A DNA stretch of 64,000 nt from Flavobacterium sp. Its GTDB lineage: Bacteria > Bacteroidota > Bacteroidia > Flavobacteriales > Flavobacteriaceae. The translations under genes and the position numbers were made by a program. This document shows positions 12,432 to 52,634 of the stretch, one piece after another. The DNA lies in assembly GCA_031383535.1 (NCBI GenBank), contig JANMZS010000175.1, positions 2,844-66,843 of the forward strand. The letters are read 5' to 3'. The notes beneath the pieces were generated by a model that was given only the letters and a program-made list of their open reading frames with translations, searched no databases and was not told where the DNA came from. Position 1 is the stretch's first letter, and every line of letters begins with the position of its first letter.

Positions 12432-12433
12432 AG

Positions 12434-13312: not shown

Positions 13313-13369
13313 TTTCTCCACATTTAAATATTTCATTCGATAAACAACGAGCTTTTAATTACTCAAAAT

Positions 13370-14824
13370 ATGCTTTTTAACTCTTTAAATTTTGCTATTT
13401 TCTTACCCATAATTTTTATACTCTATTGGTTTTTAAACAACAAAAGTCTAAAATTTCAAAACATTCTCTTGCTGATTTCAAGCTATTTTTTTTATGCTTG
13501 TTGGGATTGGCGATTTTTGTTTCTTTTAATTTTTTCTACTTTATTGGATTATTATACGGGTATTAAAATGTCGGATGCTAAAGATCAAAACAGTAAGAAA
13601 TTTTGGTTTTGGTTGAGTATTTCCGTAAACCTTGGTTTTCTTGGGGTTTTTAAATATTACAATTTTTTTGCGGCCTCCTTTGCTGATGCCGTTGCCAATT
13701 TTGGATTTCAAGTAAATCCTTGGACTTTAAAAGTAATCCTTCCAGTGGGAATTTCATTTTATACCTTTCACGGTTTGTCCTATGTGATTGATATTTATAA
13801 AGACAGAATCAAAGCAGAGAAAAATTTTATAGACTACTCCGTTTTCGTTAGTTTTTTTCCATTACTAGTAGCTGGACCAATAGAAAGAGCAACGCATTTG
13901 TTGCCACAGATTCAGAAAAAAAGAATTTTCAATTATGAAAATGCTGTTGATGGACTGAAGCAAATTTTATGGGGTTTATTCAAAAAAGTAGTGATAGCAG
14001 ACCAATGCGCAGAAATAGCAAATATGACTTTTAATAACTCAGGAGGTTATTCAGGAAGTACCTTAGTTTTAGGAGCTGTGTTTTTTGCCTTCCAAATTTA
14101 TGGAGATTTTTCAGGCTATTCCGATATAGCGTTAGGAACGGCAAGGTTATTTAGAATCGATTTGTTACGAAATTTTGCTTTTCCTTATTTCTCTAGAGAT
14201 ATTGCTGAATTTTGGCGACGTTGGCATATTTCGCTGTCTACCTGGTTTCGGGATTATTTATACATTCCGTTGGGCGGAAGTAAAGGAGGAATGTGGATGA
14301 AAATCAGAAACACTTTTATTATTTTCTTAGTTAGTGGTTTTTGGCACGGCGCCAATTGGACTTTTATTGTTTGGGGATTACTAAATGCTTTATTCATCAT
14401 GCCTTCTATTATTTTTAATACCCATAGAAATAACTTAGATATGGTAGCTCAGGGGAAATACTTGCCCAGTTTTAAAGAGTTTTTTCAAATGGGGTTGACT
14501 TTTAGTTTAACGGTTTTTGCTTGGATATTTTTCAGGGCAGAAAATGTAGCGCATGCACTTGATTATATTTCTCAAATAGCTTCAAGCTCTTTGTTGTCAA
14601 AACCAAACCTTTTGATAAAAAACTCTCCTTTGACTAATTATTTATATTTGTTTATTTTTATTTTTATTATAATCGAATGGTTAGGCAGACAGCAACAATA
14701 TGCCATCGCAGTACTAACGAATTCATGGCCAAAAGCAATTAGATACGCATTTTACTATTTGATTATTATTGGAATTTTATGGTTTTCAGGTAAAGAACAA
14801 CAGTTTATTTATTTTCAGTTTTGA
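13370..14824 (+). CDS. MBOAT O-acyltransferase, copy 2
   Basis: Same motifs as copy 1; near-identical protein core. Confidence 0.95.
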   Translation: MLFNSLNFAIFLPIIFILYWFLNNKSLKFQNILLLISSYFFYACWDWRFLFLLIFSTLLDYYTGIKMSDAKDQNSKKFWFWLSISVNLGFLGVFKYYNFFAASFADAVANFGFQVNPWTLKVILPVGISFYTFHGLSYVIDIYKDRIKAEKNFIDYSVFVSFFPLLVAGPIERATHLLPQIQKKRIFNYENAVDGLKQILWGLFKKVVIADQCAEIANMTFNNSGGYSGSTLVLGAVFFAFQIYGDFSGYSDIALGTARLFRIDLLRNFAFPYFSRDIAEFWRRWHISLSTWFRDYLYIPLGGSKGGMWMKIRNTFIIFLVSGFWHGANWTFIVWGLLNALFIMPSIIFNTHRNNLDMVAQGKYLPSFKEFFQMGLTFSLTVFAWIFFRAENVAHALDYISQIASSSLLSKPNLLIKNSPLTNYLYLFIFIFIIIEWLGRQQQYAIAVLTNSWPKAIRYAFYYLIIIGILWFSGKEQQFIYFQF

Positions 14825-14825
14825 T

Positions 14826-15875
14826 ATGAAAAAGTTACTTATAAAATCATTACTATTTAGTTTCCCCGTAGTTCTTCTTTATCTTTTCACCTTGTTTTTT
14901 TATTCAATGGATAAAGGGGATTTGATAAGAGTGGGTTATATCATGGATTCTGGCGATTATAGAAGTATTTTTAATAAAGATTTTAAACAAAAACATTATT
15001 ATACTCCAATAGCTGAGGTTAATTTAGATGCTCCAAAAAAATTCACGATACTAACTATAGGAGATTCTTTTACGGGGCAAAAAGGATTGGGTTATAAAAA
15101 TTATTTAGCTCAAAAACCAAATATCTCGGTTTTGAATTTAGATTATTATTTATGCAAAAACCCAATACAAACCGCCTATGGAATTGCAAATGGAGACTTG
15201 CTAAACACTATAAAAGTAGACTACATTGTTGTTCAATCGGTAGAAAGAGAAATTGTTAATAGATTAAAAAATCTAGATGTTAATGAAAAAGTAAATATTG
15301 AATCCATCAAGAAATTGATAAAAAAATATAAATATAAAAATATCGATTCGACCAAAATCAATAAATTTTCAGCCAATAGAATGATTAAATTTCCGATTAG
15401 AAATATCTGTTATTTTTTTGACGACAATGCTTTTTATTCAGAAACCTTTCAGGTTAAAACCAGTAAAAAGTTATTTTCAAAAGATAAGCACAACTTGTTA
15501 TTTTCGAATGAAGATTTGAAAAATCTAAAAATGAATAATGATGTAAAGGCTGCTTCAAAATTAAATGATGTTTTTAATGATTTGTCAAAAAGACTTAGTT
15601 TGCGAGGTATTAAATTAATAGTGTTGCCAAGTGCAGATAAATTTGATTTTTATTATGATTATATTGCCGAAAATAAAAAATATAATAAACCTTTATTTTT
15701 TAATCATTTTGATACATTACCCAAAAACTATTTTTATATCAATTCCAAAAAAATTCTAACACCCTATTTGAAAAACAAAAAAGATCTCTATTTTTATGAC
15801 GATACCCATTGGTCACCCATTTCAGATAAAATCTTCGCCAATGAATTGTATAGCGTAATGAGCCAAAAGCATTAG
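14826..15875 (+). CDS. SGNH AlgX/AlgJ-like periplasmic partner of MBOAT 2
   Basis: IGDSF and DDTHWS motifs, TM anchor. ATG 14826 follows the MBOAT stop; the longer ORF from 14769 overlaps it. Confidence 0.65.
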   Translation: MKKLLIKSLLFSFPVVLLYLFTLFFYSMDKGDLIRVGYIMDSGDYRSIFNKDFKQKHYYTPIAEVNLDAPKKFTILTIGDSFTGQKGLGYKNYLAQKPNISVLNLDYYLCKNPIQTAYGIANGDLLNTIKVDYIVVQSVEREIVNRLKNLDVNEKVNIESIKKLIKKYKYKNIDSTKINKFSANRMIKFPIRNICYFFDDNAFYSETFQVKTSKKLFSKDKHNLLFSNEDLKNLKMNNDVKAASKLNDVFNDLSKRLSLRGIKLIVLPSADKFDFYYDYIAENKKYNKPLFFNHFDTLPKNYFYINSKKILTPYLKNKKDLYFYDDTHWSPISDKIFANELYSVMSQKH

Positions 15876-15930
15876 CCTTAGCGATTAAAATTTAAAAAGC
15901 TTTTAGTATCTTGTTCAAAAAAAATCACAA

Positions 15931-16941
15931 ATGAAAATACTTATCACAGGAGCCGCAGGTTTTATAGGAATGCACACTGTTCGAAAAATAGCTGAATTAG
16001 GACATCAAGTTGTTGGGCTAGATAATGTGAATGCCTATTATGAAACTGATTTAAAATACGCTCGTTTAGCTGAATTAGGAATCAATAGAGAAGATTTAGT
16101 ATACAATAAAATGGTGAATGGCAAACAGAATTTTCAATTTGTGCTTTTAGACATTCAAGATGCGGGAAATTTAAACTCCTTATTTGCCACACAAAAATTT
16201 GATATTGTAATTCATCTTGCTGCACAAGCTGGCGTACGATATTCTATCACTAATCCTAGAGATTATATCGATAGTAATATTATTGGGTTTTACAATATTT
16301 TAGAAGCGTGTAGAAATTTTCCGTTGCAACATCTTGTTTTTGCATCGAGTTCGTCCGTATATGGTAATACCGATGTAGTTCCATTTTCTGAAAAACAAAA
16401 CACAGATTTTCCAGTTAGTTTTTATGCAGCAACCAAAAAGAGTAATGAAGTCATGGCACATTCCTATTCCGAATTGTATAAAATGAAAATTACAGGATTG
16501 CGATTTTTTACGGTTTATGGCCCTTGGGGCAGACCAGATATGGCACCAACTCTGTTCGCCAAAGCAGGGATTGAAGGCAAACCAATTAAGGTGTTTAATG
16601 AAGGAAATCAAAGCCGTGATTTTACTTTTATTGATGATATTGTTCAAGGAATTCAAATCGTGGCACAAAATCCATCACCGAAAACGAATTTCAGAATGCT
16701 TAATATTGGAAACGGAAATCCAGTAAATCTGATGGAGTTTATTAAATTATTAGAATTGAATATAGGAAGACCTTTTCAATATCAGATGATGCCAGCACAA
16801 AATGGGGATGTTCAATCTACTTATGCTAATGTTACCGAAATTGAAAAGTTAGGGTATAGCGCCACAACACCTTTAGAATTAGGTATTCCAAAATTTATAA
16901 ATTGGTTTTTGAATTATTATACTACTAACGAAATCAAGTAA
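15931..16941 (+). CDS. NAD-dependent epimerase, UDP-glucuronate 4-epimerase-like
   Basis: TGAAGFIG, HLAAQAGVRYS, SSSSVYG, YAATK, RFFTVYGPWGRPDMA. Confidence 0.9.
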   Translation: MKILITGAAGFIGMHTVRKIAELGHQVVGLDNVNAYYETDLKYARLAELGINREDLVYNKMVNGKQNFQFVLLDIQDAGNLNSLFATQKFDIVIHLAAQAGVRYSITNPRDYIDSNIIGFYNILEACRNFPLQHLVFASSSSVYGNTDVVPFSEKQNTDFPVSFYAATKKSNEVMAHSYSELYKMKITGLRFFTVYGPWGRPDMAPTLFAKAGIEGKPIKVFNEGNQSRDFTFIDDIVQGIQIVAQNPSPKTNFRMLNIGNGNPVNLMEFIKLLELNIGRPFQYQMMPAQNGDVQSTYANVTEIEKLGYSATTPLELGIPKFINWFLNYYTTNEIK

Positions 16942-16967
16942 ATGATTGCTTTTTTATTTAAAAATCA

Positions 16968-17951
16968 TTGATGAAAAAATTTACTGTAGCGCTTTTATTA
17001 TTTTCTATTCCACTTGTATTTTTGGGGGGCTTGGGAGATTATTTTATTACTAAAGCTCTTAGAAAGTCAAATCATAAATATTATGTGGTTTGGAATGATT
17101 TGGTTTCTGGAAATATAAATTCTGAAATAGTGGTTTATGGTACTTCTAGAGCTAGAGCTCATATTAATTCAAAGATACTAGAAGATACATTGAATTTATC
17201 TACTTATAATTTAGGAATAGACGGCTATACATTTGACATGGAATATTGTCGACATGAGTTGGTTTTTGAAAAAAACAAGAAACCATCCTATATTATTCAG
17301 ACCTTGGACTACCACATGTTGGGTAAAATAAAAGATTTATATCAATACGAGCAGTTTTACCCTTATTTTGATAATAAAATAATTCTTAAAACAATCAAGA
17401 GATATAATGGTCTTAATTGGTGGGATTATCATCTTCCTTTGGTCAGATATTATGGAAGTAAAGAAGAAATATTCAGTGCTTTGAATATTTTGTTGAGACC
17501 TTCTCATAATAAAGGAAATCGATATAAAGGGTTTTATAATTTTGATCAAAATTGGACTAATGATTTTGAAAAAGCGAAGAAGTCCAAAAAAACCATAAAA
17601 CAAAAAATAGACAAAGAATCAGTAATTCTTTTTGAAAAGCTTATAACAGACACAAAAAAAAGGGGCATTCCTATGATTTTTGTATATACACCTGAGCACA
17701 TCGAGGGTCAAAATTTTGTTTCAAATAGAAAAGAAATTATGGATTTTTATGCTAAGATTGCAGTTAAATATCAAATTCCATTCCTCGACTACAGTAAAGA
17801 TTCGATGTGTTATAACAAAGATTATTTTTATAATTCAGAACATTTAAACTTAAAAGGGGCTAATTATTTTTCGAAAAAACTAGCGTCAGATTTAAAGAAA
17901 ATCATAAAATCACCAATAAAATCAGACTTAACTAATTCAAATTTTAAATAA
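16968..17951 (+). CDS. SGNH/DltD-like protein
   Basis: TM anchor, YGTSRA, YNLGIDG, NSEHLN; related to 19418 and 24798. Confidence 0.6.
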   Translation: MMKKFTVALLLFSIPLVFLGGLGDYFITKALRKSNHKYYVVWNDLVSGNINSEIVVYGTSRARAHINSKILEDTLNLSTYNLGIDGYTFDMEYCRHELVFEKNKKPSYIIQTLDYHMLGKIKDLYQYEQFYPYFDNKIILKTIKRYNGLNWWDYHLPLVRYYGSKEEIFSALNILLRPSHNKGNRYKGFYNFDQNWTNDFEKAKKSKKTIKQKIDKESVILFEKLITDTKKRGIPMIFVYTPEHIEGQNFVSNRKEIMDFYAKIAVKYQIPFLDYSKDSMCYNKDYFYNSEHLNLKGANYFSKKLASDLKKIIKSPIKSDLTNSNFK

Positions 17952-17966
17952 ATTAATCAAATATAA

Positions 17967-19415
17967 ATGTTTTTCAACTCCATAAACTTCGCTATTTTTT
18001 TGCCTATAGTTTTTATACTGTATTGGTTTATATCCAACAAAAGCTTAAAACTTCAAAATATTCTATTGTTAATTTCGAGCTATTTCTTCTATGCTTGTTG
18101 GGATTGGCGGTTCTTGTTTCTTTTAATTTTCTCAACCCTATTAGATTATTATACGGGAATCAAAATGTCGGATGCAAAAAATCAAGCGTCGAAAAAATTT
18201 TGGTTTTGGCTAAGCATATCAGTAAACCTTGGTTTTCTAGGTGTTTTTAAATATTATAACTTTTTTGCGGCCTCCTTTGCTGATGCTATTGCTAACTTTG
18301 GGATGCAAGTCAACCCTTGGACTTTAAAAGTAATCCTTCCTGTTGGGATTTCATTTTATACTTTTCACGGATTGTCTTATGTGATTGATATATATAAAGA
18401 CCGTATCAAGGCGGAAAAGAATTTTATAGATTACTCCGTTTTTGTTAGCTTTTTCCCTTTGCTTGTAGCTGGTCCAATTGAACGTGCCACGCATTTATTA
18501 CCTCAGATTCAGAAAAAAAGAGAATTTGATTTTGCAAATGCTGTCGATGGTTTGAAACAAATTTTGTGGGGATTGTTTAAAAAAGTTGTTATTGCTGATA
18601 ATTGTGCCAAATTTGCCAACATCATTTTTGATAATTATACGGACTATTCTGGAAGTACATTAGCCTTAGGTGCGGTATTTTTTGCTTTTCAAATATACGG
18701 AGATTTTTCGGGCTATTCTGATATTGCATTGGGAACGGCAAGGCTTTTTGGAATCGATTTATTACGAAATTTTGCCTTTCCTTATTTTTCTCGTGATATA
18801 GCAGAATTTTGGAGACGTTGGCATATTTCGCTTTCTACCTGGTTTCGGGATTATTTATACATTCCGTTGGGAGGTAGTAAAGGAGGAATGTGGATGAAAA
18901 TTAGAAACACTTTTATTATATTTTTAGTCAGTGGTTTTTGGCATGGTGCCAATTGGACTTTTATTGTGTGGGGTTTTCTGAATGCTTTATACATTATGCC
19001 TTCGATTATTTTTAATACCCATAGAAATAATTTAGATAGTGTAGCACAAGGGAAGATGTTCCCTACCTTAAAAGAATTATTTTCAATAATTGTTACTTTT
19101 TCATTAACGGTTTTAGCTTGGATATTTTTTAGGTCTAATACTATTGATCAGGCAGTACATTATATTGCTAGAATTTTTTCGAAATCTTTTTTTAGTTTTC
19201 CTGCTATTAAAATAGACATGTATGACAAGCCTATTTTTCTGCTAGTTTTTTTATTTATTTTTATAGAGTGGCTAGGAAGAGAACAACAATATGCTATTGC
19301 TAATTTATTTTCAAAAAAGCCTAAAGTTTTTCGCTGGGCGTTTTATTATTTGGTAATCATCCTTATTTTTATTTTTGCGGGTTCTAATCAGCAGTTTATC
19401 TATTTTCAGTTTTAA
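17967..19415 (+). CDS. MBOAT O-acyltransferase, copy 3
   Basis: Same motifs; core near-identical to copies 1 and 2, tail similar to copy 4. Confidence 0.95.
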   Translation: MFFNSINFAIFLPIVFILYWFISNKSLKLQNILLLISSYFFYACWDWRFLFLLIFSTLLDYYTGIKMSDAKNQASKKFWFWLSISVNLGFLGVFKYYNFFAASFADAIANFGMQVNPWTLKVILPVGISFYTFHGLSYVIDIYKDRIKAEKNFIDYSVFVSFFPLLVAGPIERATHLLPQIQKKREFDFANAVDGLKQILWGLFKKVVIADNCAKFANIIFDNYTDYSGSTLALGAVFFAFQIYGDFSGYSDIALGTARLFGIDLLRNFAFPYFSRDIAEFWRRWHISLSTWFRDYLYIPLGGSKGGMWMKIRNTFIIFLVSGFWHGANWTFIVWGFLNALYIMPSIIFNTHRNNLDSVAQGKMFPTLKELFSIIVTFSLTVLAWIFFRSNTIDQAVHYIARIFSKSFFSFPAIKIDMYDKPIFLLVFLFIFIEWLGREQQYAIANLFSKKPKVFRWAFYYLVIILIFIFAGSNQQFIYFQF

Positions 19416-20389
19416 GATTGAAAACATTCATCAAAAAAATATTATTTTTTTTATTCCCAATAGTTTTATTATCCTATTTTCTCGATGTTTTTATTTCAAA
19501 TAATCTTAAAAAATCGAATCAATTTGCAAAAAAAGAATTTAGTACTTGGAATGCTATTTTTGAAGGTAAAATCAATTCAGACTTTTTGATTTATGGTAAC
19601 TCCAGAGCTTGGGTGCATTTCAATGCTACTATGATGACTGATAGTTTGTTTGTGCCAACGTATAATTTAGGAATAAACGGACATGGATTTTGGTTGCAAT
19701 ATTTTAGACACTCTTTGTTATTGATAAAAAATCCTAAGCCTAAAATAATTATTGTTGCAATTGATGAGTTTTGTTTAGAAAAGAGAAAAGATTTATATAA
19801 TTCCGAACAGTTTTTACCTTATATGCTGTGGAATGCAGCAATTAAAAAGACGACAAACAGCTATGAAGGGTTTGTTTCTATGGATTTTGAACTACCGTTA
19901 ATTAGGTATTATGGAAAAACAGAAGCCTTAGAAACAGCATTTTGTTCTTTTTTTGGAAATTTAAATAATCCAGTCCAGAGAGTTAGGGGATATCAAGGTC
20001 AAATAAGAATCTGGAATAAAGACCTAAAAAAAGCTAAATCAACTATTAAGAAGTACGAAGTTAAAGTAGATTTACCAACTTTAGTTTTATTTGAAAAATT
20101 CATTGTTGAATGTAAATCTCAGAATATTAAATTGATTTTTGTCAATGCACCTGAATATATTGAGGGGCAAAAATTTGTAAGAAACAGAGCCGAAGTTCTA
20201 GCTATTTATACTAAGTTGAGTAAGCAATATCGTATTCCACTTTATGATTATTCGAATGATACCATTTCTTTTCAAAAAAAATATTTTTATAATTCTGTTC
20301 ACATGAACAAAACGGGAGCAGACTTATTTACAACTAAACTTATTGATACAATTAAGCATGATAAAGTCATGCAAAGTATTTTGAACTAA
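19263..20389 (+). repeat. 1.13-kb diverged direct repeat, copy 1 (MBOAT tail plus SGNH gene)
   Basis: Colinear and equal in length to 24643-25769; both SGNH ORFs are 972 nt. Confidence 0.8.
19418..20389 (+). CDS. SGNH/DltD-like partner of MBOAT 3 (TTG start)
   Basis: YGNSRAW, YNLGING, NSVHMN; paralog of 24798. Confidence 0.65.
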   Translation: MKTFIKKILFFLFPIVLLSYFLDVFISNNLKKSNQFAKKEFSTWNAIFEGKINSDFLIYGNSRAWVHFNATMMTDSLFVPTYNLGINGHGFWLQYFRHSLLLIKNPKPKIIIVAIDEFCLEKRKDLYNSEQFLPYMLWNAAIKKTTNSYEGFVSMDFELPLIRYYGKTEALETAFCSFFGNLNNPVQRVRGYQGQIRIWNKDLKKAKSTIKKYEVKVDLPTLVLFEKFIVECKSQNIKLIFVNAPEYIEGQKFVRNRAEVLAIYTKLSKQYRIPLYDYSNDTISFQKKYFYNSVHMNKTGADLFTTKLIDTIKHDKVMQSILN

Positions 20390-20420: not shown

Positions 20421-22142
20421 ATGAAAGATTTTTCGAAACTAAAGAAGAATTTAAAAAAAGATTTTTCAGGTTTAAAAACAATTAAAGTTGCCGTTTTGGG
20501 CGATACAGCCACCCAATTTTTAACCCAAGCTTTGCGTGGATTGGGTTATGATTATGGGTTTAATCTCGAAATGTGGGAAGCCGATTTTAATCAAATAGAA
20601 AGACAAGTATATGATCTTTCTTCTGAATTGTATGAGTACAATCCTGAAATAGTAATTGTATTTCAATCCTCCCATAAATTATTAGGGAAATACAATAAAA
20701 TCAAGCGAGAACAACATATTCTGTTCGCTACAAATGAACTAGAAACGATTGAAAATATTTATTCCAATTTAACAAACAATCTCAATGCAAAGGTTATTTA
20801 TTATAATTATACAGAGATTGACGACTCCGTTTTTGGGAATTATGCTACTAAAACGGAATCTTCGTTTTTATTTCAATTGCGAAAACTCAATTATGAGTTA
20901 ATGGTATTGGCCGCAAAAAATCCAAATCTATTTTTGTGTGATCTTTCGTCGATTCAAAACCAAGTTGGGAAAGTGAATTTTTTCCATACATCGGTTTATA
21001 TTAATACCGAAATGGTTTTAAGTATTGATGTTTTGCCTAATGTTGCCTCTAAAACTATAGATATCATTAACACCTTTAACGGCAAGTTTAAGAAATGTGT
21101 CATTTTAGATTTAGACAATACCACATGGGGCGGCATCATTGGTGATGATGGCATTGAAAACATACAAATAGGCAGTTTGGGTATTGGAAAAGCATTTTCA
21201 GAATTTCAATATTGGATAAAAAAATTAAAAAATAGAGGAATTATTATCGCTGTTTGTAGTAAGAATACTGAATCGGTTGCCAAAGAACCCTTTGAAAAAC
21301 ATCCTGACATGGTTTTACGATTGGATGATATTTCGGTTTTCATCGCCAATTGGGACAATAAAGCAGATAATATCCGTCAAATACAAACTATTCTGAATAT
21401 TGGATTTGATTCGATGGTGTTTTTAGACGATAATCCTTTTGAGAGAAATATAGTCCGAGAAAATATTCCCGAAATTTGTGTTCCCGAATTGCCCGAAGAT
21501 CCTGCGGATTACTTAGAATATTTATATACACTAAACCTTTTTGAAACAGTTTCGTTTTCTAATGAAGATGCTGAACGAACAAAATTATATCAAATTGAAG
21601 CACAAAGAGCTACAATTCAACAAAAATTCACCAATGAAGATGATTTCTTAAAAAATCTAAATATGCTTTCATTGGTTGAGTCATTTAACAAATTTAATAG
21701 ACCAAGAGTAGCTCAGCTTTCTCAACGTTCTAATCAATTTAATTTAAGAACCGTTCGGTATACGGATACTGATATCGAAAAGCTTTCCTTGTCTTCGGAT
21801 TATTTTACATTTGCTTTCACACTCGAAGATAAATTTGGGGATAACGGATTAATTTGCGTCATTATTTTGAAAAAAGAAGCTGCTGAAACGGTCTTTATTG
21901 AAACCTGGTTTATGAGTTGTAGGGTTTTAAAACGTACTATGGAAAATTTTGTTTTGAATACAATAGTTAATTTTTGCAAAGAAAACGGATTTGAAATTTT
22001 GAAAGGAGAATATATTCCAACAACCAAAAACGAAATGGTGAAAGACCATTATCTGAATTTAGGATTTAAAGAAAATGATACCTTTTGGACTTTAAATACA
22101 TCAGACTATCAAGAAAAGCTAACCTATATTGCTATAAAATAA
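20421..22142 (+). CDS. FkbH-like HAD-IIIC protein (glyceryl-ACP loading enzyme family)
   Basis: LDLDNTTWGG (DxDxT), CSKN, NWDNKA, FLDDNPFER, RSNQFNL, DKFGDNG, MSCRVL. Confidence 0.9.
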   Translation: MKDFSKLKKNLKKDFSGLKTIKVAVLGDTATQFLTQALRGLGYDYGFNLEMWEADFNQIERQVYDLSSELYEYNPEIVIVFQSSHKLLGKYNKIKREQHILFATNELETIENIYSNLTNNLNAKVIYYNYTEIDDSVFGNYATKTESSFLFQLRKLNYELMVLAAKNPNLFLCDLSSIQNQVGKVNFFHTSVYINTEMVLSIDVLPNVASKTIDIINTFNGKFKKCVILDLDNTTWGGIIGDDGIENIQIGSLGIGKAFSEFQYWIKKLKNRGIIIAVCSKNTESVAKEPFEKHPDMVLRLDDISVFIANWDNKADNIRQIQTILNIGFDSMVFLDDNPFERNIVRENIPEICVPELPEDPADYLEYLYTLNLFETVSFSNEDAERTKLYQIEAQRATIQQKFTNEDDFLKNLNMLSLVESFNKFNRPRVAQLSQRSNQFNLRTVRYTDTDIEKLSLSSDYFTFAFTLEDKFGDNGLICVIILKKEAAETVFIETWFMSCRVLKRTMENFVLNTIVNFCKENGFEILKGEYIPTTKNEMVKDHYLNLGFKENDTFWTLNTSDYQEKLTYIAIK

Positions 22143-22149
22143 AATATAA

Positions 22150-23055
22150 ATGACATCACTTGAAATAATACTTCAAAAAATAAGAGTTAGCAATCCAGTT
22201 CATGCTGATAAATTAGAATCAAATTGCAGTGATTTAGGCGAAAAATATAGAAATTCAGCCAATGTTTTTTTTGATAAATATCGAGTTTATTTAGAAAAAA
22301 ACAATATGACTTTAGATTTTGGAGTCAATTGTTATTTGCACATGATTGAAGACATGCTTGAAGAACGATTTAAATTCATTCGTTCTGGAAATTATTCTAA
22401 TACTTCCTTTGAAGATGTAGAAAAGAGGATTTATGGAAATTCGGAAATTATGAATTACCACATGCACGGTTTAGTTTTAGCTCAATTTCTATGGTTTGAT
22501 CAATACGAGAGAATCTTATTTTTTAAAGAAAATATTAAAAAACATATTGTCAATAAAAATAATTATTTAGAAATTGGTGGTGGTCACGGATTGTATATTT
22601 TTGAAGCTTTGAATACCTTACCAGAAATTAAGCAATTTGATTTAGTAGATATCAGCCAAAGTTCTTTAAATCTCGCAAAAGGAATTATAGACGACGATAG
22701 AATCAATTATTATTTGAAAAATATTTTTGATTTTTCAGAAGATGAAAAGTATGATTTTGTAACCATGGGCGAAGTTTTAGAACACGTAGAACAGCCGTTA
22801 GATTTATTGAAAAAAGCCAGTGACTTACTTTCTGAAAACGGAATTTTTTATATTACCACTCCTATAAATGCGCCCATGATTGATCATATTTATTTATTCA
22901 ATAACGAAGAAGAAATTAGAGAAATGATACGTCAAGTTGGTTTTAAGATTTTAGAAGAAAAAATTGTAATTTCCGAAAAAATTTCACCTGAGAAAGCTAT
23001 AAAACATAAAGTTCCTGTTATGTATGCGGCATTTTTAAAAAAAATAAATAGTTAA
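22150..23055 (+). CDS. Class I SAM-dependent methyltransferase
   Basis: LEIGGGHG, VDISQSS, YDFVTMGEVLEHV. Confidence 0.85.
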   Translation: MTSLEIILQKIRVSNPVHADKLESNCSDLGEKYRNSANVFFDKYRVYLEKNNMTLDFGVNCYLHMIEDMLEERFKFIRSGNYSNTSFEDVEKRIYGNSEIMNYHMHGLVLAQFLWFDQYERILFFKENIKKHIVNKNNYLEIGGGHGLYIFEALNTLPEIKQFDLVDISQSSLNLAKGIIDDDRINYYLKNIFDFSEDEKYDFVTMGEVLEHVEQPLDLLKKASDLLSENGIFYITTPINAPMIDHIYLFNNEEEIREMIRQVGFKILEEKIVISEKISPEKAIKHKVPVMYAAFLKKINS

Positions 23056-23066
23056 AAATAATAATA

Positions 23067-23309
23067 ATGGAAAGAAAAGAACTGTTCAAAAAAGTGAATG
23101 AGATTTTTATTGATGTATTAGATATCGAAGAAGATATTGTCTTAGAAGACGCGACAAAGGCTACGGATGTTGATGAGTGGGATTCCTTAAATCACATACA
23201 ATTAGTGGTAGCTATTGAAAAAGAATTTAAAATACGATTTACTTCAAAAGAAATACAATCGTGGAATAATGTTGGCGAAATGATAGACTCAATAGCCCAA
23301 AAAATTTAA
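23067..23309 (+). CDS. Acyl carrier protein
   Basis: 80 aa, acidic, WDSLNHIQLV phosphopantetheine-Ser motif. Confidence 0.92.
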   Translation: MERKELFKKVNEIFIDVLDIEEDIVLEDATKATDVDEWDSLNHIQLVVAIEKEFKIRFTSKEIQSWNNVGEMIDSIAQKI

Positions 23310-23340
23310 TATTTGCCATAAATACCCAACTAATTCCAAC

Positions 23341-24795
23341 ATGATATTTAACTCATTTTCTTTTTTAGTATTTTTTAGTATTTTTTTTATTGTTTATTGG
23401 TTTATATGCAATAGAAATTTAAAACTTCAAAACGGATTACTTCTTGTTGGTAGTTATGTCTTTTATGCTTGGGCTGATTGGCGATTTTTATTTTTTCTAA
23501 TAGGCGTTTCGGCGTTAAATTATTTTTTAGGAATAGCTATTGAAAATCAAACCTCAGAAAAAACCAAAAAACTATTGCTTTATATAGGTTTGTTACAAGG
23601 AATAGGTTGTTTAGCCTTTTTTAAATATTATAACTTCTTTATTGTTTCAATTAATGATGTTTTTCATTCTTTGAATGTGAATTTAAATTTAAAAACGCTT
23701 AGTATCATTGTTCCATTAGGAATTAGTTTTTTTACCTTTAGAACGATAAGTTATATTTTAGATGTTGATAAAGGAAAAATTGAGGCAACCAAGGATTGGA
23801 TTGTTTTTTTTAATTATGTTTCCTTTTTTCCTTCGGTATTATCAGGTCCTATCGATAAAGCAAAAACTTTTGTTCCTCAGTTAGAAAAGAAAAGGGTTTA
23901 TGATTTTAATCAATCTGCTGATGGATTTCGCCAGATATTGTGGGGATTATTCAAGAAAGTGGTCGTTGCCGATAATTGTGCTATACTAACCAATTCGATA
24001 TTTGAAGACTATCATAGCTTGCCAGCGAGCTCTTTATTATTAGGAGCATTTTTATATGCGATTCAGATTTATGCTGATTTTTCAGGTTATTCTGATATGG
24101 CAATTGGATTTTCACGCCTTCTAGGTTTTACTATTACTAAGAATTTTGATTTTCCTTTTTTTAGCCAAAACATTGCCGAATTTTGGAGAAAGTGGCATAT
24201 TTCCTTAACTTCTTGGCTTACGGAATATGTATTTACTCCCTTGAGTATTTTTTTTAGAGATTATGTCAAATTGGGATTAATTGGAGCAATTGTAATCAAT
24301 TTTACAATTTGTGGAATTTGGCATGGAGCGAATTGGACGTATGTACTTTTCGGGTTTTTACACGGAATTTATTTTATACCTCTTATACTCAAAGGAACGA
24401 TGAATAAGAAGAAGAAAATAGCAAAAAACCAAGTGCTTCCTTCCTTTAAAGAATTTATAAATATAGTAAGCACTTTCACATTAGTCATGTTGACTATGGT
24501 TATTTTTAGAAGTGAATCTATCGAAAAGGCTTTTGAGTATTATCAAGGCTTATTTTCGACTTCACTTTTTTCGATTCCAATGGTGCATCTAAAGAATAAC
24601 TTTTTGGGAATCACTTTGCTTTTCATATTTATACTGTTTTGCATTGAATGGTTAGGGCGTGATGAGCAATATGGAATTGCCAATTTGTTTGCCCAAAAAC
24701 CACGAGTTTACAGATGGATTTTCTATTATTTAATTGTATTAGTCATATTTGTTTTTGCAGCTTCAAACCAACAATTTATTTATTTTCAGTTTTAG
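23341..24795 (+). CDS. MBOAT O-acyltransferase, copy 4 (divergent)
   Basis: PLGISFFTF, SGPI, YADFSGYSD, EFWRKWHISL, IWHGANW. Confidence 0.95.
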   Translation: MIFNSFSFLVFFSIFFIVYWFICNRNLKLQNGLLLVGSYVFYAWADWRFLFFLIGVSALNYFLGIAIENQTSEKTKKLLLYIGLLQGIGCLAFFKYYNFFIVSINDVFHSLNVNLNLKTLSIIVPLGISFFTFRTISYILDVDKGKIEATKDWIVFFNYVSFFPSVLSGPIDKAKTFVPQLEKKRVYDFNQSADGFRQILWGLFKKVVVADNCAILTNSIFEDYHSLPASSLLLGAFLYAIQIYADFSGYSDMAIGFSRLLGFTITKNFDFPFFSQNIAEFWRKWHISLTSWLTEYVFTPLSIFFRDYVKLGLIGAIVINFTICGIWHGANWTYVLFGFLHGIYFIPLILKGTMNKKKKIAKNQVLPSFKEFINIVSTFTLVMLTMVIFRSESIEKAFEYYQGLFSTSLFSIPMVHLKNNFLGITLLFIFILFCIEWLGRDEQYGIANLFAQKPRVYRWIFYYLIVLVIFVFAASNQQFIYFQF

Positions 24796-25769
24796 TTATG
24801 AGAAAAGATGTGAAATATTTTTTGTTTTTTTTGGTGCCAATTATGCTCTTTTCGTATGGTCTTGATGTGCTAATTTCAACTAATCTTAAAAAATCAAATC
24901 AATTTGCCGAAAAAGAATACAGTACTTGGAATGCTATTTTTGAAGGAAAAATAAATTCAGATTTGCTAATTTATGGAGCTTCAAGAGCTTGGGTGCAATT
25001 CAATTCAACTATGATTACCGATAGTTTGCATATTCCTACTTATAATCTAGGGATTGATGGACATTATTTTCAGTTGCAATATTTTAGACATAAAATGTTG
25101 ATGAAAAAAAACAAAAAGCCTAAAGTTATTATTATAGCTATCGATATGTTTTCATTAGAAAAAAGAAAGGATTTATACAATTTAGAGCAATTTTTACCCT
25201 ATATGCTTTGGAATAAAGATATTAAGACGGCAACTAGCGGTTATAAAGGCTTCACTTCCATTGATTATGAAATACCATTAATTCGATATTATGGAAGAAC
25301 AAAAGCTATAGAGACGGCATTTCGCTTTGTTTCTGGTCATTTGAGTAATCCTGTTTGCAGGGTTAAGGGGTATCAAGCACGAGATGAATCTTGGAATTCA
25401 GATTTTGATAAAGCTAAGCTTACTATGAAAGAACAAGAGATTAAACCAGATAAATCAATTATTATGCTCTTTGAAAGATTTATTACCGAATGTAACTCTC
25501 AAAATATAAAATTGATTTTTGTGAATGCACCTGAGTATAGTGAGGGTCAAAAATTCATAAAAAATAGAGGCGAAGTTTTAGCTATTTATACTAAGTTTAG
25601 TAAGCAATATCATATTCCGTTTTATGATTATTCAAATGATGCTATTTCGTATAAAAAAAAATATTTTTATAACTCAATACACATGAACAAAATGGGAGCT
25701 GAGTTATTTACGGCTAAACTGATTGACACGCTAAAACAATCTAAGATAATAAAAGAGTTGAGTCATTAA
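24643..25769 (+). repeat. 1.13-kb diverged direct repeat, copy 2
   Basis: Colinear with 19263-20389. Confidence 0.8.
24798..25769 (+). CDS. SGNH/DltD-like partner of MBOAT 4
   Basis: YGASRAW, NSIHMN. Start at ATG 24798 gives the same length as paralog 19418. Confidence 0.65.
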   Translation: MRKDVKYFLFFLVPIMLFSYGLDVLISTNLKKSNQFAEKEYSTWNAIFEGKINSDLLIYGASRAWVQFNSTMITDSLHIPTYNLGIDGHYFQLQYFRHKMLMKKNKKPKVIIIAIDMFSLEKRKDLYNLEQFLPYMLWNKDIKTATSGYKGFTSIDYEIPLIRYYGRTKAIETAFRFVSGHLSNPVCRVKGYQARDESWNSDFDKAKLTMKEQEIKPDKSIIMLFERFITECNSQNIKLIFVNAPEYSEGQKFIKNRGEVLAIYTKFSKQYHIPFYDYSNDAISYKKKYFYNSIHMNKMGAELFTAKLIDTLKQSKIIKELSH

Positions 25770-25796
25770 TTCAAATAAAAACGCTTATAATCCGAT

Positions 25797-26732
25797 ATGA
25801 AAATGAATAAATTTATTAAAAACACTCTTATATTTGGCACTCCAGTACTTGTTTTCATAGTAATGATGGAGCTGCTTTTACAAAGAATTCCAAATGATTA
25901 TTCATTTAAAAGAAATTATTTAGACAAGAATTCCAATAAAATTGAAACTTTGTTTTTAGGAAGTTCACATGCGTTTTATTCTGTAAATCCGAAGTATATT
26001 CATTCTAATAGTTTCAATGCGGCACATATTGCTCAATCTTTGGATTATGATATTGAAATACTCAAAAAATATGAAAATAAAACTACGAAACTTCAATACA
26101 TTGTTGTTCCTATAGATTATTTTTCTTTGTATAATAGATTGGAAACAGGGGTGGAAAGTTGGAGGATAAAAAATTATACAATTTACTATGGATTTAATAA
26201 GAGTTATGAATTCAAAGATAATTTCGAAATTTTAAATGGAAAATTAATCGAAAATATCAAAAGAATAGTTCAGTTTTATGTGCGTCATAAGTCAGAAGTA
26301 AGTTGTAATACCTTAGGTTGGGGAACCAAACATAATTCTAAAAACAATAAAGATTTAATTGCAACAGGAAAAGCAGCAGCCAAAAGACATGCCGCCAAAA
26401 GCAAATCTTTTTTTAATGAAAATGTAGCAATCGTCAATGAAATAATCGCCATAGCAAAAACCAAAAAAGCAAAAGTAATTTTTTATACCAACCCTGCATA
26501 CAAAACCTATACTTCACAATTAAATCAAGAACAATTGCAAAAAACATACGCCACGATAAGAAGCATCACAAATTCAAATCCTAATGTGCGGTATTATGAT
26601 TTTTTGACAGATTCATCATTTTTAAAAGAAGATTTTTTTGATGCAGATCATTTAAATGAAATTGGAACCGAAAAATTCTCCAAAAAAATGGATAGTATCA
26701 TTACAAGTTACAATACTAATGTCCAAAATTAA
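25797..26732 (+). CDS. SGNH/DltD-like protein
   Basis: TM anchor, LGSSH, DADHLN; same subtype as 12434. Confidence 0.6.
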   Translation: MKMNKFIKNTLIFGTPVLVFIVMMELLLQRIPNDYSFKRNYLDKNSNKIETLFLGSSHAFYSVNPKYIHSNSFNAAHIAQSLDYDIEILKKYENKTTKLQYIVVPIDYFSLYNRLETGVESWRIKNYTIYYGFNKSYEFKDNFEILNGKLIENIKRIVQFYVRHKSEVSCNTLGWGTKHNSKNNKDLIATGKAAAKRHAAKSKSFFNENVAIVNEIIAIAKTKKAKVIFYTNPAYKTYTSQLNQEQLQKTYATIRSITNSNPNVRYYDFLTDSSFLKEDFFDADHLNEIGTEKFSKKMDSIITSYNTNVQN

Positions 26733-27834
26733 AGTACTTCATATTATCAAGTCTTTGGGGCGTGGTGGAGCTGAGATGCTATTGCCAGAAACCTTAAAAG
26801 AGCATCATCAAGATCAATTTGAGTTTCATTATATTTATTTTCTGCCTTGGAAAAATCAAATGGTAGAAGCAATTGAATTTGCGGGTGGTAAAGTCAGCTG
26901 TTTTTCAGCAAAAAACAATTTGCAATTGCTGTTGCAATATTCTAGAATTATAGATTATTGTAAAAAAAATGAAATACAACTTATTCATGCTCATCTGCCT
27001 TGGGCAGGATTTGTAAGTAGGTTGGTGCATTTTAAAATAGCTATTCCAGTAATTTATACAGAACATAATTTACAGGAGCGTTATCATTTTCTTACCAAGG
27101 TTTTAAATAAATGGAGTTTTAATTTTCAAACTGCAGCTATCGGAGTTTCTGAAGATGTAACACAATCGATACATAAAAATATCCATCCTAGTATTTCTTG
27201 TAAAACCCTGCTAAATGGGGTTAATATTCAAAGTTTTCAACGAAATAATCCAGAGCAAAGAACTACCATTAGAAAACAATATGGTATTCCAAAAGACGCT
27301 ATTTTAGTGGGAACTGTAGCTGTTTTTAGGTTTCAAAAACGATTGGATATATGGTTGGAAATAATAAGCGAAGCCATAAGTAAAAACCCTAATATCTATG
27401 GAGTCATTGTTGGAGCAGGAATTTTAGAACCTGAAATTTATGCCAAACACACGGCATTAAACCTAGAAGGAAAAGTCTTTTTTGCGGGTTTGCAAACCAA
27501 TGTAAAACCCTATTATGAAGCGATGGATATTTTTATGATGAGTTCTTCTTTTGAAGGTCTTCCTATTGCTTTGCTCGAAGCAATGAGTATGGGTTGTGCC
27601 ATTGTTTCTACCAATGCAGGAGGAATAAAAGAGGTTATACAAAATAATGAAAACGGAATTTTGGTAGAAGTTGATGATTGGAAATATTTATCAACTTCTC
27701 TGTGTACTCTGGCTGAAAACCCTGAAAAACTCACTTTTTTTCAAATAGAAGCTCGGAAAAGAGTAGTCGGAAATTTTAGTATAGACAATATGGTAGCCAA
27801 ATTAGAATCTTTGTACATTAATTGTCTAAAATGA
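26719..27834 (+). CDS. Glycosyltransferase family 4
   Basis: GRGGAE, FQKRLD, SSFEGLPIALLEAM; start moved to ATG 26719. Confidence 0.9.
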   Translation: MSKIKVLHIIKSLGRGGAEMLLPETLKEHHQDQFEFHYIYFLPWKNQMVEAIEFAGGKVSCFSAKNNLQLLLQYSRIIDYCKKNEIQLIHAHLPWAGFVSRLVHFKIAIPVIYTEHNLQERYHFLTKVLNKWSFNFQTAAIGVSEDVTQSIHKNIHPSISCKTLLNGVNIQSFQRNNPEQRTTIRKQYGIPKDAILVGTVAVFRFQKRLDIWLEIISEAISKNPNIYGVIVGAGILEPEIYAKHTALNLEGKVFFAGLQTNVKPYYEAMDIFMMSSSFEGLPIALLEAMSMGCAIVSTNAGGIKEVIQNNENGILVEVDDWKYLSTSLCTLAENPEKLTFFQIEARKRVVGNFSIDNMVAKLESLYINCLK

Positions 27835-28772
27835 TTATTAGAAATGCAACCTCAGATGATGTTCCAGCTATTGTTGCTTTATTGAAACTTAGTTTGGGAG
27901 AAGGATTAATTAAAAAAACCTCCGAAATATGGAATTTCAAACATATTGATAATCCATTCGGGGAATCCTATGTGTCTTTGGCTTTTGAGAAAGATATTTT
28001 AGTAGGTGTTAGAGCCTTTATGAAATGGCAATGGCAATTAGGGGATGATGTTTGGTATTCTTACAGAGCTGTTGATACAGCCACACATCCTGATTTTCAA
28101 GGAAAGGGAATCTTTAAAACGTTAACTTTAAAAGCTTTGGATGATGTTCAAAATAATGAAGGAGACACCTTTGTTTTTAATACACCTAATCAATACAGTC
28201 GACCAGGTTATTTAAAAATGGGATGGAAGATTGTTGATACTATTGAATTAGCAGTTGTTCCCACAATTTTGTATGCTATTCCGTATTTTTTTTCAAAACC
28301 AAAGTCTGAAAAGGCTATTAATATAGCCCAACTAAATCAACTTTGTTTGAACTACAACCTTGATTTATCGAAAAAAAATGTCATCTTCTCTCCTAAATCT
28401 GCAGCGTATTTAAAGTGGCGTTATGAAGTAAACCCTTTGCAAGAATATATTATTTCCTCTTCGGATGATTTTTATATAGCGTTTTATATCAAAAAGCATC
28501 GATTTTTTAATGAACTGAGGGTGGTTGAAACCATTAGTTTAAATCAGGAAGTTCATTTGAGCCAAATCCGAAAAATTATACTAAATTTTGCATTTCAAAA
28601 AAGATGTTCGTTAATCACTACTGCGAATAAAGATTTATTTCGATTTAAAATATATGGTAAATTTGGACCTAAGCTCACCATTAAAACACTTACCAAAGAT
28701 TCCTTTTTTATTAATACAGTCTTTACTATCAAAAAATGGAAGTATAGTATAGGCGATTTAGAATTATTTTAA
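27831..28772 (+). CDS. GNAT-family N-acetyltransferase
   Basis: VDTATHPDFQGKGIF acyl-CoA binding motif; FNTPN. Confidence 0.8.
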   Translation: MIIRNATSDDVPAIVALLKLSLGEGLIKKTSEIWNFKHIDNPFGESYVSLAFEKDILVGVRAFMKWQWQLGDDVWYSYRAVDTATHPDFQGKGIFKTLTLKALDDVQNNEGDTFVFNTPNQYSRPGYLKMGWKIVDTIELAVVPTILYAIPYFFSKPKSEKAINIAQLNQLCLNYNLDLSKKNVIFSPKSAAYLKWRYEVNPLQEYIISSSDDFYIAFYIKKHRFFNELRVVETISLNQEVHLSQIRKIILNFAFQKRCSLITTANKDLFRFKIYGKFGPKLTIKTLTKDSFFINTVFTIKKWKYSIGDLELF

Positions 28773-30052: not shown

Positions 30053-31024
30053 ATGAAAAATGGAGCTTTAATTATTTCACTTGATTTCGAATTAGTATGG
30101 GGACTTTTTGACCATATTGAAATTAAAGATAAGCTTACTTACTTTAACAATACTCTCGAAGCAATTCCACAAATTCTAAGTGTTTTTGAAAAGAATACCA
30201 TCCACGTAACTTGGGCTACCGTCGGGATGTTATTTAACGAAAACTGGGAGGAATGGTATTCGAATATTCCCGAAATCATACCTACTTATGCTCAAAAGGA
30301 ATTAGATGCCTATCAATATGGAAAGAAGCATCAAAAATCTGGATTAGAAAAATTCTTTTTTGCTCCAGATTTGATTAAAACCATTCAAAGTGTCAAAGGG
30401 CAAGAAATTGGCACCCATACGTATTCCCATTACTATTGTTTACAAAAAGGGCAAACCAAAGAGCAATTCGAAGCCGATATTAATCAGGCTGTTAAAATTG
30501 CGAGGAATTTTAAAATAGAATTGAAATCCCTTGTTTTTCCTCGAAACCAATTCAATCAAGACTATTTAGAAATATGTGCTCAAAAAGATATTGAAACTGT
30601 TCGTTCTAATCCTGATTTTTGGTATTGGGATACTGCTAAAAGAGAAACCCTAGCCGTAAAAATCGCACGCACGGGAGACGCCTATTTGCCTTTAGGTAAA
30701 AAATCGTATTCGGTTGAAAGTTTAGCACCAAAAAAAGTACTTTGTCAGCCCTCTAGTCGATTTCTAAGACCACAACATTCGATGACATTATTCAATAATG
30801 CTAGGCTTAATCGGATTAAGACTGAAATGATTCATGCGGCTAAAAATGGCGAAGTGTATCATTTGTGGTGGCATCCTCATAATTTTGGTGTAGATGTTAC
30901 TAATGCTATCAAAACGCTACAAGCTATTGTCGAAACATATTCGTATTGTAGTGAAACTTATGGAATGGAAAGTCTTACGATGAAGGAATTGAGAGATGAT
31001 TTTTGCACCAAAAATAATATCTAA
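30053..31024 (+). CDS. Polysaccharide deacetylase family protein
   Basis: SLDFELVWG, EIGTHTYSH, VFPRNQ, HLWWHPHNFG. Confidence 0.85.
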   Translation: MKNGALIISLDFELVWGLFDHIEIKDKLTYFNNTLEAIPQILSVFEKNTIHVTWATVGMLFNENWEEWYSNIPEIIPTYAQKELDAYQYGKKHQKSGLEKFFFAPDLIKTIQSVKGQEIGTHTYSHYYCLQKGQTKEQFEADINQAVKIARNFKIELKSLVFPRNQFNQDYLEICAQKDIETVRSNPDFWYWDTAKRETLAVKIARTGDAYLPLGKKSYSVESLAPKKVLCQPSSRFLRPQHSMTLFNNARLNRIKTEMIHAAKNGEVYHLWWHPHNFGVDVTNAIKTLQAIVETYSYCSETYGMESLTMKELRDDFCTKNNI

Positions 31025-43472: not shown

Positions 43473-43541
43473 AGGATAATAAATAGTCTATTTGTTAGGT
43501 TGTCTTCACATAATTTATTCAAAAAAATAGCAATTAAGTAA

Positions 43542-44633: not shown

Positions 44634-44638
44634 TTGCC

Positions 44639-45568: not shown

Positions 45569-45572
45569 AATT

Positions 45573-46457: not shown

Positions 46458-46474
46458 TTAGTAGTTCAAATAGT

Positions 46475-46550: not shown

Positions 46551-46578
46551 ATTGTAGGCGAAAATAAATTAACAAAAA

Positions 46579-52630: not shown

Positions 52631-52634
52631 TCAG

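Follow-up and report, generated by a model that had tools for sequence, protein, structure and literature searches.

The window analysed here is a stretch of 64,000 nucleotides from a Flavobacterium sp. genome (assembly GCA_031383535.1, contig JANMZS010000175.1, positions 2,844 to 66,843). It is low in GC (~30%), and nearly every gene in it lies on the + strand. A single large polysaccharide locus of the Wza/Wzc type extends from 88 to ~41.6 kb and encodes many GT2 and GT4 glycosyltransferases, four membrane-bound O-acyltransferases (MBOATs), a PglC-like initiating transferase, a formyltransferase, a DegT aminotransferase, a CapD-like dehydratase, Wza and Wzc. Within this locus we found a module of six genes (20421-26732, + strand) for an FkbH-type loader, a methyltransferase (MT), an acyl carrier protein (ACP), an MBOAT (hereafter MBOAT4) and two SGNH/DltD-fold proteins (hereafter partners 1 and 2). 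The intergenic gaps in the module are 2 to 31 nt (Table 1).

Previously, a first-pass annotation, made from the sequence alone, had pointed to an FkbH protein with a DLDNT motif, a methyltransferase that uses S-adenosylmethionine (SAM), an ACP with a DSL serine, a "divergent" MBOAT and SGNH/DltD-like genes inside a glycan locus. The present analysis bears out this gene content, as described below for each protein, as well as its setting, since glycosyltransferase, PglC-like, Wza and Wzc genes surround the module. The SGNH/DltD-like character of the last genes holds at the level of the fold, while their extent had to be revised: a second SGNH gene (25797-26732) lies beyond the end of the region then described. 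Furthermore, the open reading frame (ORF) of partner 1 had been listed from 24714. The ATG at 24798, two bases past the MBOAT4 stop codon, gives the protein a membrane anchor and fits its homologues; thus the true start is most likely 24798, not 24714.

Table 1. Positions of the module genes, of neighbouring genes and of two variant cassettes
Feature	Position	Strand	Description	Basis
FkbH-type loader	20421..22142	+	573 aa; BF1531-like N-terminal domain, HAD-IIIC phosphatase domain, C-terminal acyl-transfer domain	Profile matches, invariant residues
Class I SAM-dependent MT	22150..23055	+	301 aa; N-terminal extension of ~120 aa	Pfam matches
Dedicated ACP	23067..23309	+	80 aa; predicted phosphopantetheine site Ser40 in DSL	PP-binding match
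MBOAT4	23341..24795	+	484 aa; catalytic His286 in WHISL, C-terminal FIYFQF with Tyr481	Pfam MBOAT, DltB alignment
SGNH/DltD-fold partner 1 (SG4a)	24798..25769	+	323 aa; N-terminal membrane anchor	AlphaFold2 model and Foldseek
SGNH-fold partner 2	25797..26732	+	311 aa; DUF1574-like, N-terminal membrane anchor	Weak DUF1574 match, AlphaFold2 and Foldseek
MBOAT3 and partner P3	17967..20389	+	Upstream neighbour pair (P3 = 19418-20389), context only	MBOAT3 in non-carrier-linked clade
GNAT	27822-28772		Downstream of module	
Polysaccharide deacetylase	30053-31024		Downstream of module	
Dlt-like layout with AMP-binding loader	L086:5183-9418; L094:768-5610		Bacteroidota-type metagenome contigs	

Loader, carrier protein and methyltransferase

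By its sequence, the first protein of the module is a predicted member of the FkbH family: its profile scores exceed the cut-offs, it has both a HAD-type DxDxT motif and a C-terminal cysteine, and a dedicated standalone ACP is encoded close by, starting 925 nt past the end of FkbH with the MT in between. Specifically, Pfam FkbH_N matched at 3e-75, TIGR01686 scored 285 bits against a cut-off of 146.65, and the HAD-IIIC model TIGR01681 scored 65.8 against 35.75. The DLDNT motif occupies residues 230-234. D230, D232, K281, D336 and D337 are invariant in 83 homologues, and so is the C-terminal S499-C500-R501, in which C500 is presumably the counterpart of the catalytic cysteine of OzmB. The N-terminal 380 aa match PDB 3slr, the Bacteroides fragilis protein BF1531, with an E value of 7.7e-153. 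Formation of glyceryl-ACP by an FkbH protein together with a standalone ACP has been reported (PMC7489565).

The ACP matched the PP-binding domain at 6.3e-06. As ACP models score under their equivalog cut-offs, it is not the AcpP of fatty acid synthesis; the DltC model NF003464 gave 17.2 bits against a cut-off of 68 bits. All 84 homologues compared share D39-S40-L41, and the genome encodes two phosphopantetheinyl transferases.

The MT matched Methyltransf_23, Methyltransf_12, Methyltransf_31 and Methyltransf_11 with E values from 1e-15 to 1e-10. Four of the five sampled contexts of its homologues are inside FkbH-ACP cassettes. Besides, the homologue P0209 (L168:163-1722, 384 aa) is a natural MT-ACP fusion, which is followed by a gene of the vicinal oxygen chelate (VOC)/glyoxalase fold. 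These observations argue that the MT acts on the ACP-tethered acyl group. Suomilide and varlaxin provide a precedent: FkbH and an MT domain of their loading modules give 2-O-methylglyceric acid on the carrier (PMC10143770). A housekeeping role for the MT was rejected, a close homologue being found in 0 of 150 other genera of the family. Two metagenome contigs (L164 and L165) contain a near-identical module, with an MT 91% identical to that of the window and the downstream gene order kept, including SGNH partner 2. In the former contig, a transposase of the IS1595 family (L164:1818-2726) lies ~0.4 kb upstream of the first gene of the syntenic locus, an epimerase gene followed by an MBOAT gene.

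An acyltransferase linked to carrier proteins by gene neighbourhood

MBOAT4 matched the Pfam MBOAT family at 2.9e-19. The nearest curated model was that of DltB (TIGR04091), with a score of 185.6 bits that is under the 375-bit cut-off. The protein aligns with the DltB structures 8jem and 6bug (E 2e-31), which places the catalytic histidine at WH286ISL. Beyond the DltB-aligned part, MBOAT4 continues for ~94 residues (391-484) comprising two hydrophobic segments and the terminal FIYFQF, and the pattern FIYxxF forms the C-terminal end of every MBOAT examined. Such an FxYxxF sequence has been shown to be an acyl-tyrosine shuttle, which is fused to the enzyme in PatA-type MBOATs, whereas in Dlt it resides on a separate protein, DltX (PMC12148441). 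Thus, MBOAT4 appears to combine a PatA/AlgI-like build with DltB-like feeding from a carrier.

Partner 1 had no Pfam or NCBIfam match, partner 2 had a weak match to DUF1574 (4e-05), and profile searches against the PDB gave nothing better than E 0.2 for either protein. Since searches by sequence failed, their folds were predicted with AlphaFold2. The model of partner 1 (predicted local distance difference test score, pLDDT, 91.3) retrieved the DltD structures 3bma, 7dxm and 6o93 as the top Foldseek matches (E ~1e-6, TM score 0.39-0.46), followed by SGNH hydrolases and PatB. The model of partner 2 (pLDDT 93.9) retrieved SGNH esterases first, and also DltD and PatB. Both families have an invariant G-x-S towards the N-terminal end of the domain and an H-x-N towards its C-terminal end. 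For partner 1 these are G-x-S62-R and H295-x-N297 (alignment A1). For partner 2 they are found as GSS57H and D-A-D-H285-L-N, with S57 and H285 invariant (alignment A2).

The gene neighbourhoods of homologues were compared in 80 annotated loci from species genomes, collected with FkbH as the seed; a gene was counted when it followed FkbH within 5 kb downstream, and an MBOAT gene when it was also on the same strand. An ACP gene was present downstream of FkbH in 77 of 78 loci. Of the 64 loci whose downstream sequence was long enough, 51 had an MBOAT gene, and several of the other loci carry one upstream or on the opposite strand. A maximum-likelihood tree of 77 MBOATs from this sample placed MBOAT4 in a clade of 46 (SH-aLRT 99). 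The genes of 45 of these come immediately after FkbH-ACP, and the remaining one neighbours a cassette of this kind but is on the opposite strand. MBOAT1, MBOAT2 and MBOAT3 of the window belong to a sister clade with 10 members, of which nine have no adjacent ACP. As FkbH-MT-ACP lies between the MBOAT3-P3 pair and MBOAT4, MBOAT3 was also considered as the partner of the ACP, and this candidate was rejected by the tree.

Because the sample for the tree had been seeded on FkbH, a reciprocal test was run, in which metagenomes were scanned with MBOAT4 as the seed and the loci were sorted by their closeness to MBOAT4 or to MBOAT1/3. An ACP gene was immediately upstream in 15 of the 16 loci closest to MBOAT4, as against 0 of 50 loci (those with enough upstream sequence among the 64 closest to MBOAT1/3; Fisher p ~1e-12). 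In one locus (L097) the ACP ORF overlaps that of the MBOAT by a few bases. The association of FkbH, ACP and MBOAT genes is far beyond chance.

Two loci of the MBOAT4 clade have another loader. In L086 and L094 (Table 1), a DltA-like AMP-binding enzyme stands in place of FkbH, and the gene order is AMP-binding enzyme, ACP, MBOAT4-like protein and SGNH-like protein; in L094, a GNAT gene additionally separates the loader from the ACP, and another MT-ACP pair is located upstream. An AMP-binding loader beside the ACP in these loci suggests that the MBOAT4 clade is tied to carriers as such, whereas the loaders are exchangeable. At the sequence level, 23 strongly conserved positions distinguish the MBOAT4 clade from its sister clade, and roughly half of them fall within residues 276-306 around His286. 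Changes in the MBOAT4 clade include R276Q, R294T and a two-residue insertion, F305-R306; R276 and R294 are kept in the sister clade and in DltB.

The cassettes also vary between ACP and MBOAT, where they carry no gene, a MaoC dehydratase with a short-chain dehydrogenase/reductase (SDR), one MT or two MTs (the last in L023, L081 and L170). A homologue of the window-type MT occurs in 17 of the 80 loci, 11 of which also contain a Glyoxalase_4 (VOC-fold) gene of ~135 aa. The variant in the window has the order FkbH-MT-ACP-MBOAT without the VOC gene. The MaoC and SDR genes of the sister cassettes fit a conversion of glyceryl-ACP via pyruvoyl-ACP to lactoyl-ACP, steps that we take to be those of these two enzymes. 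Pyruvoyl- and lactoyl-ACP derived from 1,3-bisphosphoglycerate are known from polyketide starter units (PMC6162330).

Five loci from Arenibacter, Maribacter and Ulvibacterium (L001, L009, L020, L028 and L042) have FkbH-ACP with a ketoacyl synthase III (KAS III), a second ACP and mostly a hexapeptide acyltransferase, and have no MBOAT. MaoC and SDR genes are present in some of these as well. This arrangement suggests that the acyl chain is briefly extended and then used to N-acylate an amino sugar in the cytoplasm.

Among other genomes, FkbH of the window's type was found in 5 of 300 from the same family and in 19 of 400 from the phylum, and was absent from all same-genus genomes among those listed. 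Its homologues with 71-88% identity come from Flavobacteriales, Chitinophagales, Sphingobacteriales, Bacteroidales and one Methylobacter. This rare and patchy occurrence, in spite of such high identity across several orders, is the pattern of a horizontally moving accessory element. The carriers of the cassette include cultured, non-pathogenic strains of Flavobacterium and Frigoriflavimonas: Flavobacterium sp. LMO8 (L065) has the MT variant, Frigoriflavimonas asaccharolytica (L170) the one with two MTs, and Flavobacterium psychrotolerans (L004) a MaoC variant on a contig that stops short of any SDR gene. The Methylobacter case (strain KS41, L017, a gammaproteobacterial metagenome-assembled genome) has the order FkbH-ACP-MaoC-SDR-MBOAT-SGNH with an FkbH 78% identical to that of the window, and reflects either transfer between phyla or a binning error.

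Upstream of the module, MBOAT1, MBOAT2 and MBOAT3 (starts at 10983, 13370 and 17967) are ~80% identical to one another and 44-47% identical to MBOAT4, in keeping with the divergence ascribed to the latter in the first-pass annotation. The proteins encoded behind these three MBOATs are from different families: P1, which has no Pfam match, an AlgX-like protein, and the DUF1574-like P2b and P3. Presumably, 10983-20389 is a tandem array of acetyl-type O-acylation pairs within one glycan locus. In Flavobacterium psychrotolerans (L004), a similar MBOAT-partner array is located ahead of FkbH. Right after the Wzc/CpsB end of the first locus comes another glycan locus (42612-54261), of the ABC-transporter (Wzm/Wzt) type. 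It contains Wzm at 42612, Wzt with a Wzt_C domain at 53017, a GDP-mannose dehydratase and an FkbM-type methyltransferase, with unrelated ORFs interspersed.

The probable consumer of the acyl group and alternative readings

In natural-product pathways, the consumer of FkbH-loaded ACPs would be a polyketide synthase (PKS) or a nonribosomal peptide synthetase (NRPS), and the first-pass annotation had noted that neither is encoded in the window. This statement holds for the window and for the genome alike: a search for ketosynthase and condensation domains throughout the assembly (2.97 Mb, estimated complete) found ketosynthase matches only in ORFs of 374-440 aa, which is the size of FabF/FabB, and no condensation domain. 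A PKS or NRPS elsewhere in the genome was therefore rejected as the consumer. With no assembly line available, the comparative data indicate the MBOAT in this role, and the gene neighbourhood argues for acyl-ACP rather than acyl-CoA as the probable donor of MBOAT4.

What these data establish directly is the domain content, the folds, the conservation of catalytic residues and a strong, clade-specific coupling, at the genomic level, of FkbH, ACP, MBOAT and SGNH partners. We consider it probable that, with a carrier protein as the acyl donor, the module attaches a C3 hydroxy-acyl group to a polysaccharide, secreted or capsular, on the outer side of the cytoplasmic membrane. The route proposed earlier, from glyceryl-ACP through an MBOAT and a DltD-like protein, thus gains comparative support from both directions of seeding and from the lack of a PKS or NRPS, although the module is not a close relative of Dlt. 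On the other hand, the idea of a natural-product enzyme repurposed for the cell surface may have to be turned around: the FkbH clade is abundant in glycan loci of Bacteroidota, and descent may have run the other way.

The proposed route would comprise four steps. The HAD domain of FkbH (D230/D232) would take a glyceryl group from 1,3-bisphosphoglycerate, hold it on Cys500 and pass it to the phosphopantetheine on Ser40 of the ACP, yielding glyceryl-S-ACP, as may be expected from the family to which the enzyme belongs. The SAM-dependent MT would then methylate the tethered glyceryl group, most likely on oxygen, to give O-methylglyceryl-S-ACP; the position of its gene, the MT-ACP fusion and the FkbH-plus-MT precedent of suomilide and varlaxin suggest this step. 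By analogy with PatA and DltB/DltX, the acyl-ACP would dock at the cytoplasmic face of MBOAT4, where His286 would catalyse acyl transfer to Tyr481 of FIYFQF on the periplasmic side. Finally, if the analogy extends to PatA/PatB and DltB/DltX/DltD, the acyl group would move from the tyrosine to the catalytic serine of one or both SGNH partners and further to a hydroxyl of the polysaccharide made by the PglC/Wza/Wzc locus, forming an ester.

Several observations weigh against this route or parts of it. Thirteen of the 64 FkbH loci have no same-strand MBOAT within 5 kb downstream; in 4 of these 13, a KAS III gene and then a second ACP gene are found, and 3 of the 4 also have a hexapeptide acyltransferase, so acyl-ACP can have consumers in the cytoplasm. 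The MT has generic class I matches, with no equivalog-level match, close solved structure or characterised close relative. A 68%-identical homologue of it in Dokdonia ponticola (L166:8001-8909) stands alone, outside any FkbH cassette. This copy is flanked by a thioredoxin-family gene and an S41 peptidase gene, and ~3 kb downstream of it a 1189-aa fusion of AMP-binding, PP-binding and aminotransferase domains is encoded. For the FkbH clade of the window, glycerate as the substrate is assumed from the family model. A "carrier-binding" signature common to the MBOAT4 clade and DltB was considered and rejected: Q276 and T294 cannot be a general mark of carrier use, because DltB retains arginine at both positions.

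A further point of this kind comes from partner 1, which is 69% identical at the amino acid level to P3, the partner of the non-carrier-linked MBOAT3. Hence, the partner does not mark the type of acyl group. When the MBOAT3-P3 and MBOAT4-SG4a pairs were compared at the DNA level, identity was ~55% in the MBOAT bodies and 73-86% from ~24700 on (19263-20389 versus 24640-25769). The jump in identity near ~24700 looks like a recombination or gene-conversion boundary. The FkbH-MT-ACP-MBOAT4 body thus lies between two copies of one partner gene. On sequence identity, partner 1 is evidently a recent paralogue of P3 or has been converted from it; in either event, the partners may be read as determining which polymer, shared by both pairs, is acylated, and not which acyl group is added. 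Behind the MBOATs of either clade, the SGNH partners come from several unrelated families.

It could be argued that the FkbH-MT-ACP product is used in the cytoplasm, for example for N-acylation of an amino sugar or a de-N-acetylated intermediate by the downstream GNAT, and that MBOAT4 and its partners constitute a fourth acetyl-CoA-dependent O-acetylation pair. The locus does encode the DegT aminotransferase, the formyltransferase, the GNAT and the polysaccharide deacetylase, by which an N-acylation route would be possible (a point that also counts against export by MBOAT4), and the cassettes that feed KAS III and hexapeptide acyltransferases point to such use elsewhere. A parallel is offered by Campylobacter jejuni, in which cj1302, a gene with an FkbH domain, belongs to the flagellin-glycan locus and the glycan of the organism bears methylated glycerate; both N-glyceroyl and 2,3-di-O-methylglyceroyl groups are known on pseudaminic acid. 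In contrast to the module, the group in C. jejuni is N-linked to a cytoplasmic nucleotide-sugar precursor without an MBOAT/SGNH export step, and in the literature found the link of cj1302 to this function is not established; the genetics of related N-glyceroyl sugars has been called unresolved (PMC5378307). Against cytoplasmic use in the window stand the nearly exclusive ACP adjacency of the MBOAT4 clade (45 of 46 in the tree; 15 of 16 versus 0 of 50 in the reciprocal test), the presence of tailoring genes between ACP and MBOAT in a single tight gene string, and the fact that the GNAT and the deacetylase are not kept beside FkbH in other loci. We therefore regard cytoplasmic use as distinctly unlikely.

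Two other readings keep the export of the acyl group and change one of its ends. According to one of them, which we regard as unlikely, the passage from carrier to MBOAT, SGNH protein and polymer is correct, while the acyl group is another small phosphorylated acid rather than (methyl)glycerate, or the MT acts elsewhere, for instance on a sugar hydroxyl. The extra BF1531-like N-terminal domain of this FkbH clade would suit another acyl group, just as the generic matches of the MT and its homologue outside an FkbH context would suit another target of methylation. However, FkbH exceeds the TIGR01686 cut-off by a wide margin, and its HAD and cysteine motifs are invariant; a 2,3-dihydroxy-acyl thioester would be a chemically sensible substrate for MaoC with SDR and for the VOC epimerase-like protein; the precedent of pyruvoyl- and lactoyl-ACP from 1,3-bisphosphoglycerate points the same way; and the existence of an MT-ACP fusion speaks against methylation elsewhere. 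According to the other, the acceptor is a different envelope molecule, such as lipopolysaccharide or lipid, peptidoglycan or the general O-glycan of Bacteroidota proteins. The sequence itself names no acceptor, and the unrelated SGNH families behind both MBOAT clades leave room for several. Yet every long locus inspected embeds the cassette among glycosyltransferase, Wzx-like, Wza and Wzc genes, and in the window SG4a seems to be a recent paralogue of P3, the partner of the neighbouring MBOAT; this makes an acceptor other than the polysaccharide of the locus very improbable.

Relation to known acylation systems

Extracytoplasmic acylation alters the charge and antigenicity of surface polymers, their recognition by phages and lectins, and their gel properties. 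The donors described so far for MBOAT-SGNH systems are acyl-CoA, for acetylation, and DltC, for D-alanylation only. To our knowledge, D-alanine on teichoic acids is the sole acyl group that travels by such a carrier-protein route. A mechanistic paper of 2025 states that the other MBOAT/SGNH pathways, beyond Dlt, operate without a carrier protein (PMC12148441). We found no publication that ties FkbH-ACP to an MBOAT or to O-acylation of polysaccharides; the literature found consists of natural-product papers and of glycan papers in which FkbH and MBOAT are not linked. Among published work, cj1302 of Campylobacter and the N-glyceroyl and di-O-methylglyceroyl pseudaminic acids come closest to such a connection.

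The system most similar in logic is Dlt (DltA, DltC, DltB, DltX and DltD), which D-alanylates the teichoic acids of Gram-positive bacteria. In both, a carrier-bound thioester is, or in the module would be, offered to an MBOAT, the histidine of DltB aligns with His286, and a membrane-anchored SGNH/DltD-fold protein serves transfer to the polymer; for the module this likeness is at the level of the fold, with DltD as the top match of partner 1. In contrast to Dlt, the loader is an FkbH phosphatase/acyltransferase, and the cassette has no AMP-binding gene and hence no DltA. The predicted acyl group is a hydroxy acid derived from glycolysis, probably methylated on the carrier, whereas that of Dlt is an amino acid. 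The module has no DltX and no room for a microprotein ORF between its genes; instead, FxYxxF is fused to MBOAT4 on two extra transmembrane helices. MBOAT4 and the ACP, scoring under the cut-offs of the respective models, are homologues and not orthologues of DltB and DltC. Furthermore, the module belongs to a Gram-negative host, in which a polysaccharide of the Wzy/Wza type is presumably the acceptor.

With PatA/PatB, AlgI/AlgJ/AlgX and WssH/WssI the module shares the MBOAT core, the two extra C-terminal helices, the terminal FIYxxF and a separate periplasmic SGNH partner. However, the PatA, AlgI and WssH pairs are fed by acetyl-CoA without a carrier, whereas the MBOAT4 clade is coupled to an ACP and to enzymes that load and tailor it. 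The FkbH-ACP modules of polyketide and NRPS pathways (methoxymalonyl-ACP, tetronates, suomilide/varlaxin) also pair FkbH with a dedicated carrier and tailor the group on it. The module of the window differs from these in that no PKS or NRPS is present and an MBOAT is the candidate consumer, there are no FkbK/FkbI dehydrogenases, the MT is not of the FkbG type, and the FkbH clade has a BF1531-like N-terminal domain, a form common in Bacteroidota glycan loci.

Considering these likenesses and differences, we lean, by a narrow measure, towards a broader interpretation. MBOAT4 would represent a widespread and so far unrecognised class of carrier-fed MBOAT-SGNH systems, the second after Dlt. Its loaders would be exchangeable (FkbH or adenylating enzymes), and its on-carrier tailoring enzymes would be mixed and matched, writing an "acyl code" of glyceryl, mono- and di-O-methylglyceryl and lactyl groups on surface polysaccharides. 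The cassettes would be mobile between the orders of Bacteroidota and into Proteobacteria, and the window would hold the O-methylglyceryl member.

If true, dependence on a carrier protein would not be peculiar to Dlt, and 1,3-bisphosphoglycerate would be directly linked to the decoration of the cell surface. The cassettes would provide candidate genes for glycerate, methylglycerate and lactate esters on polysaccharides, and thereby a genetic basis for the glycerate-type substituents long known from glycan chemistry. Being modular, they would also offer a compact set of tools with which exported glycans could be engineered to carry new acyl groups.

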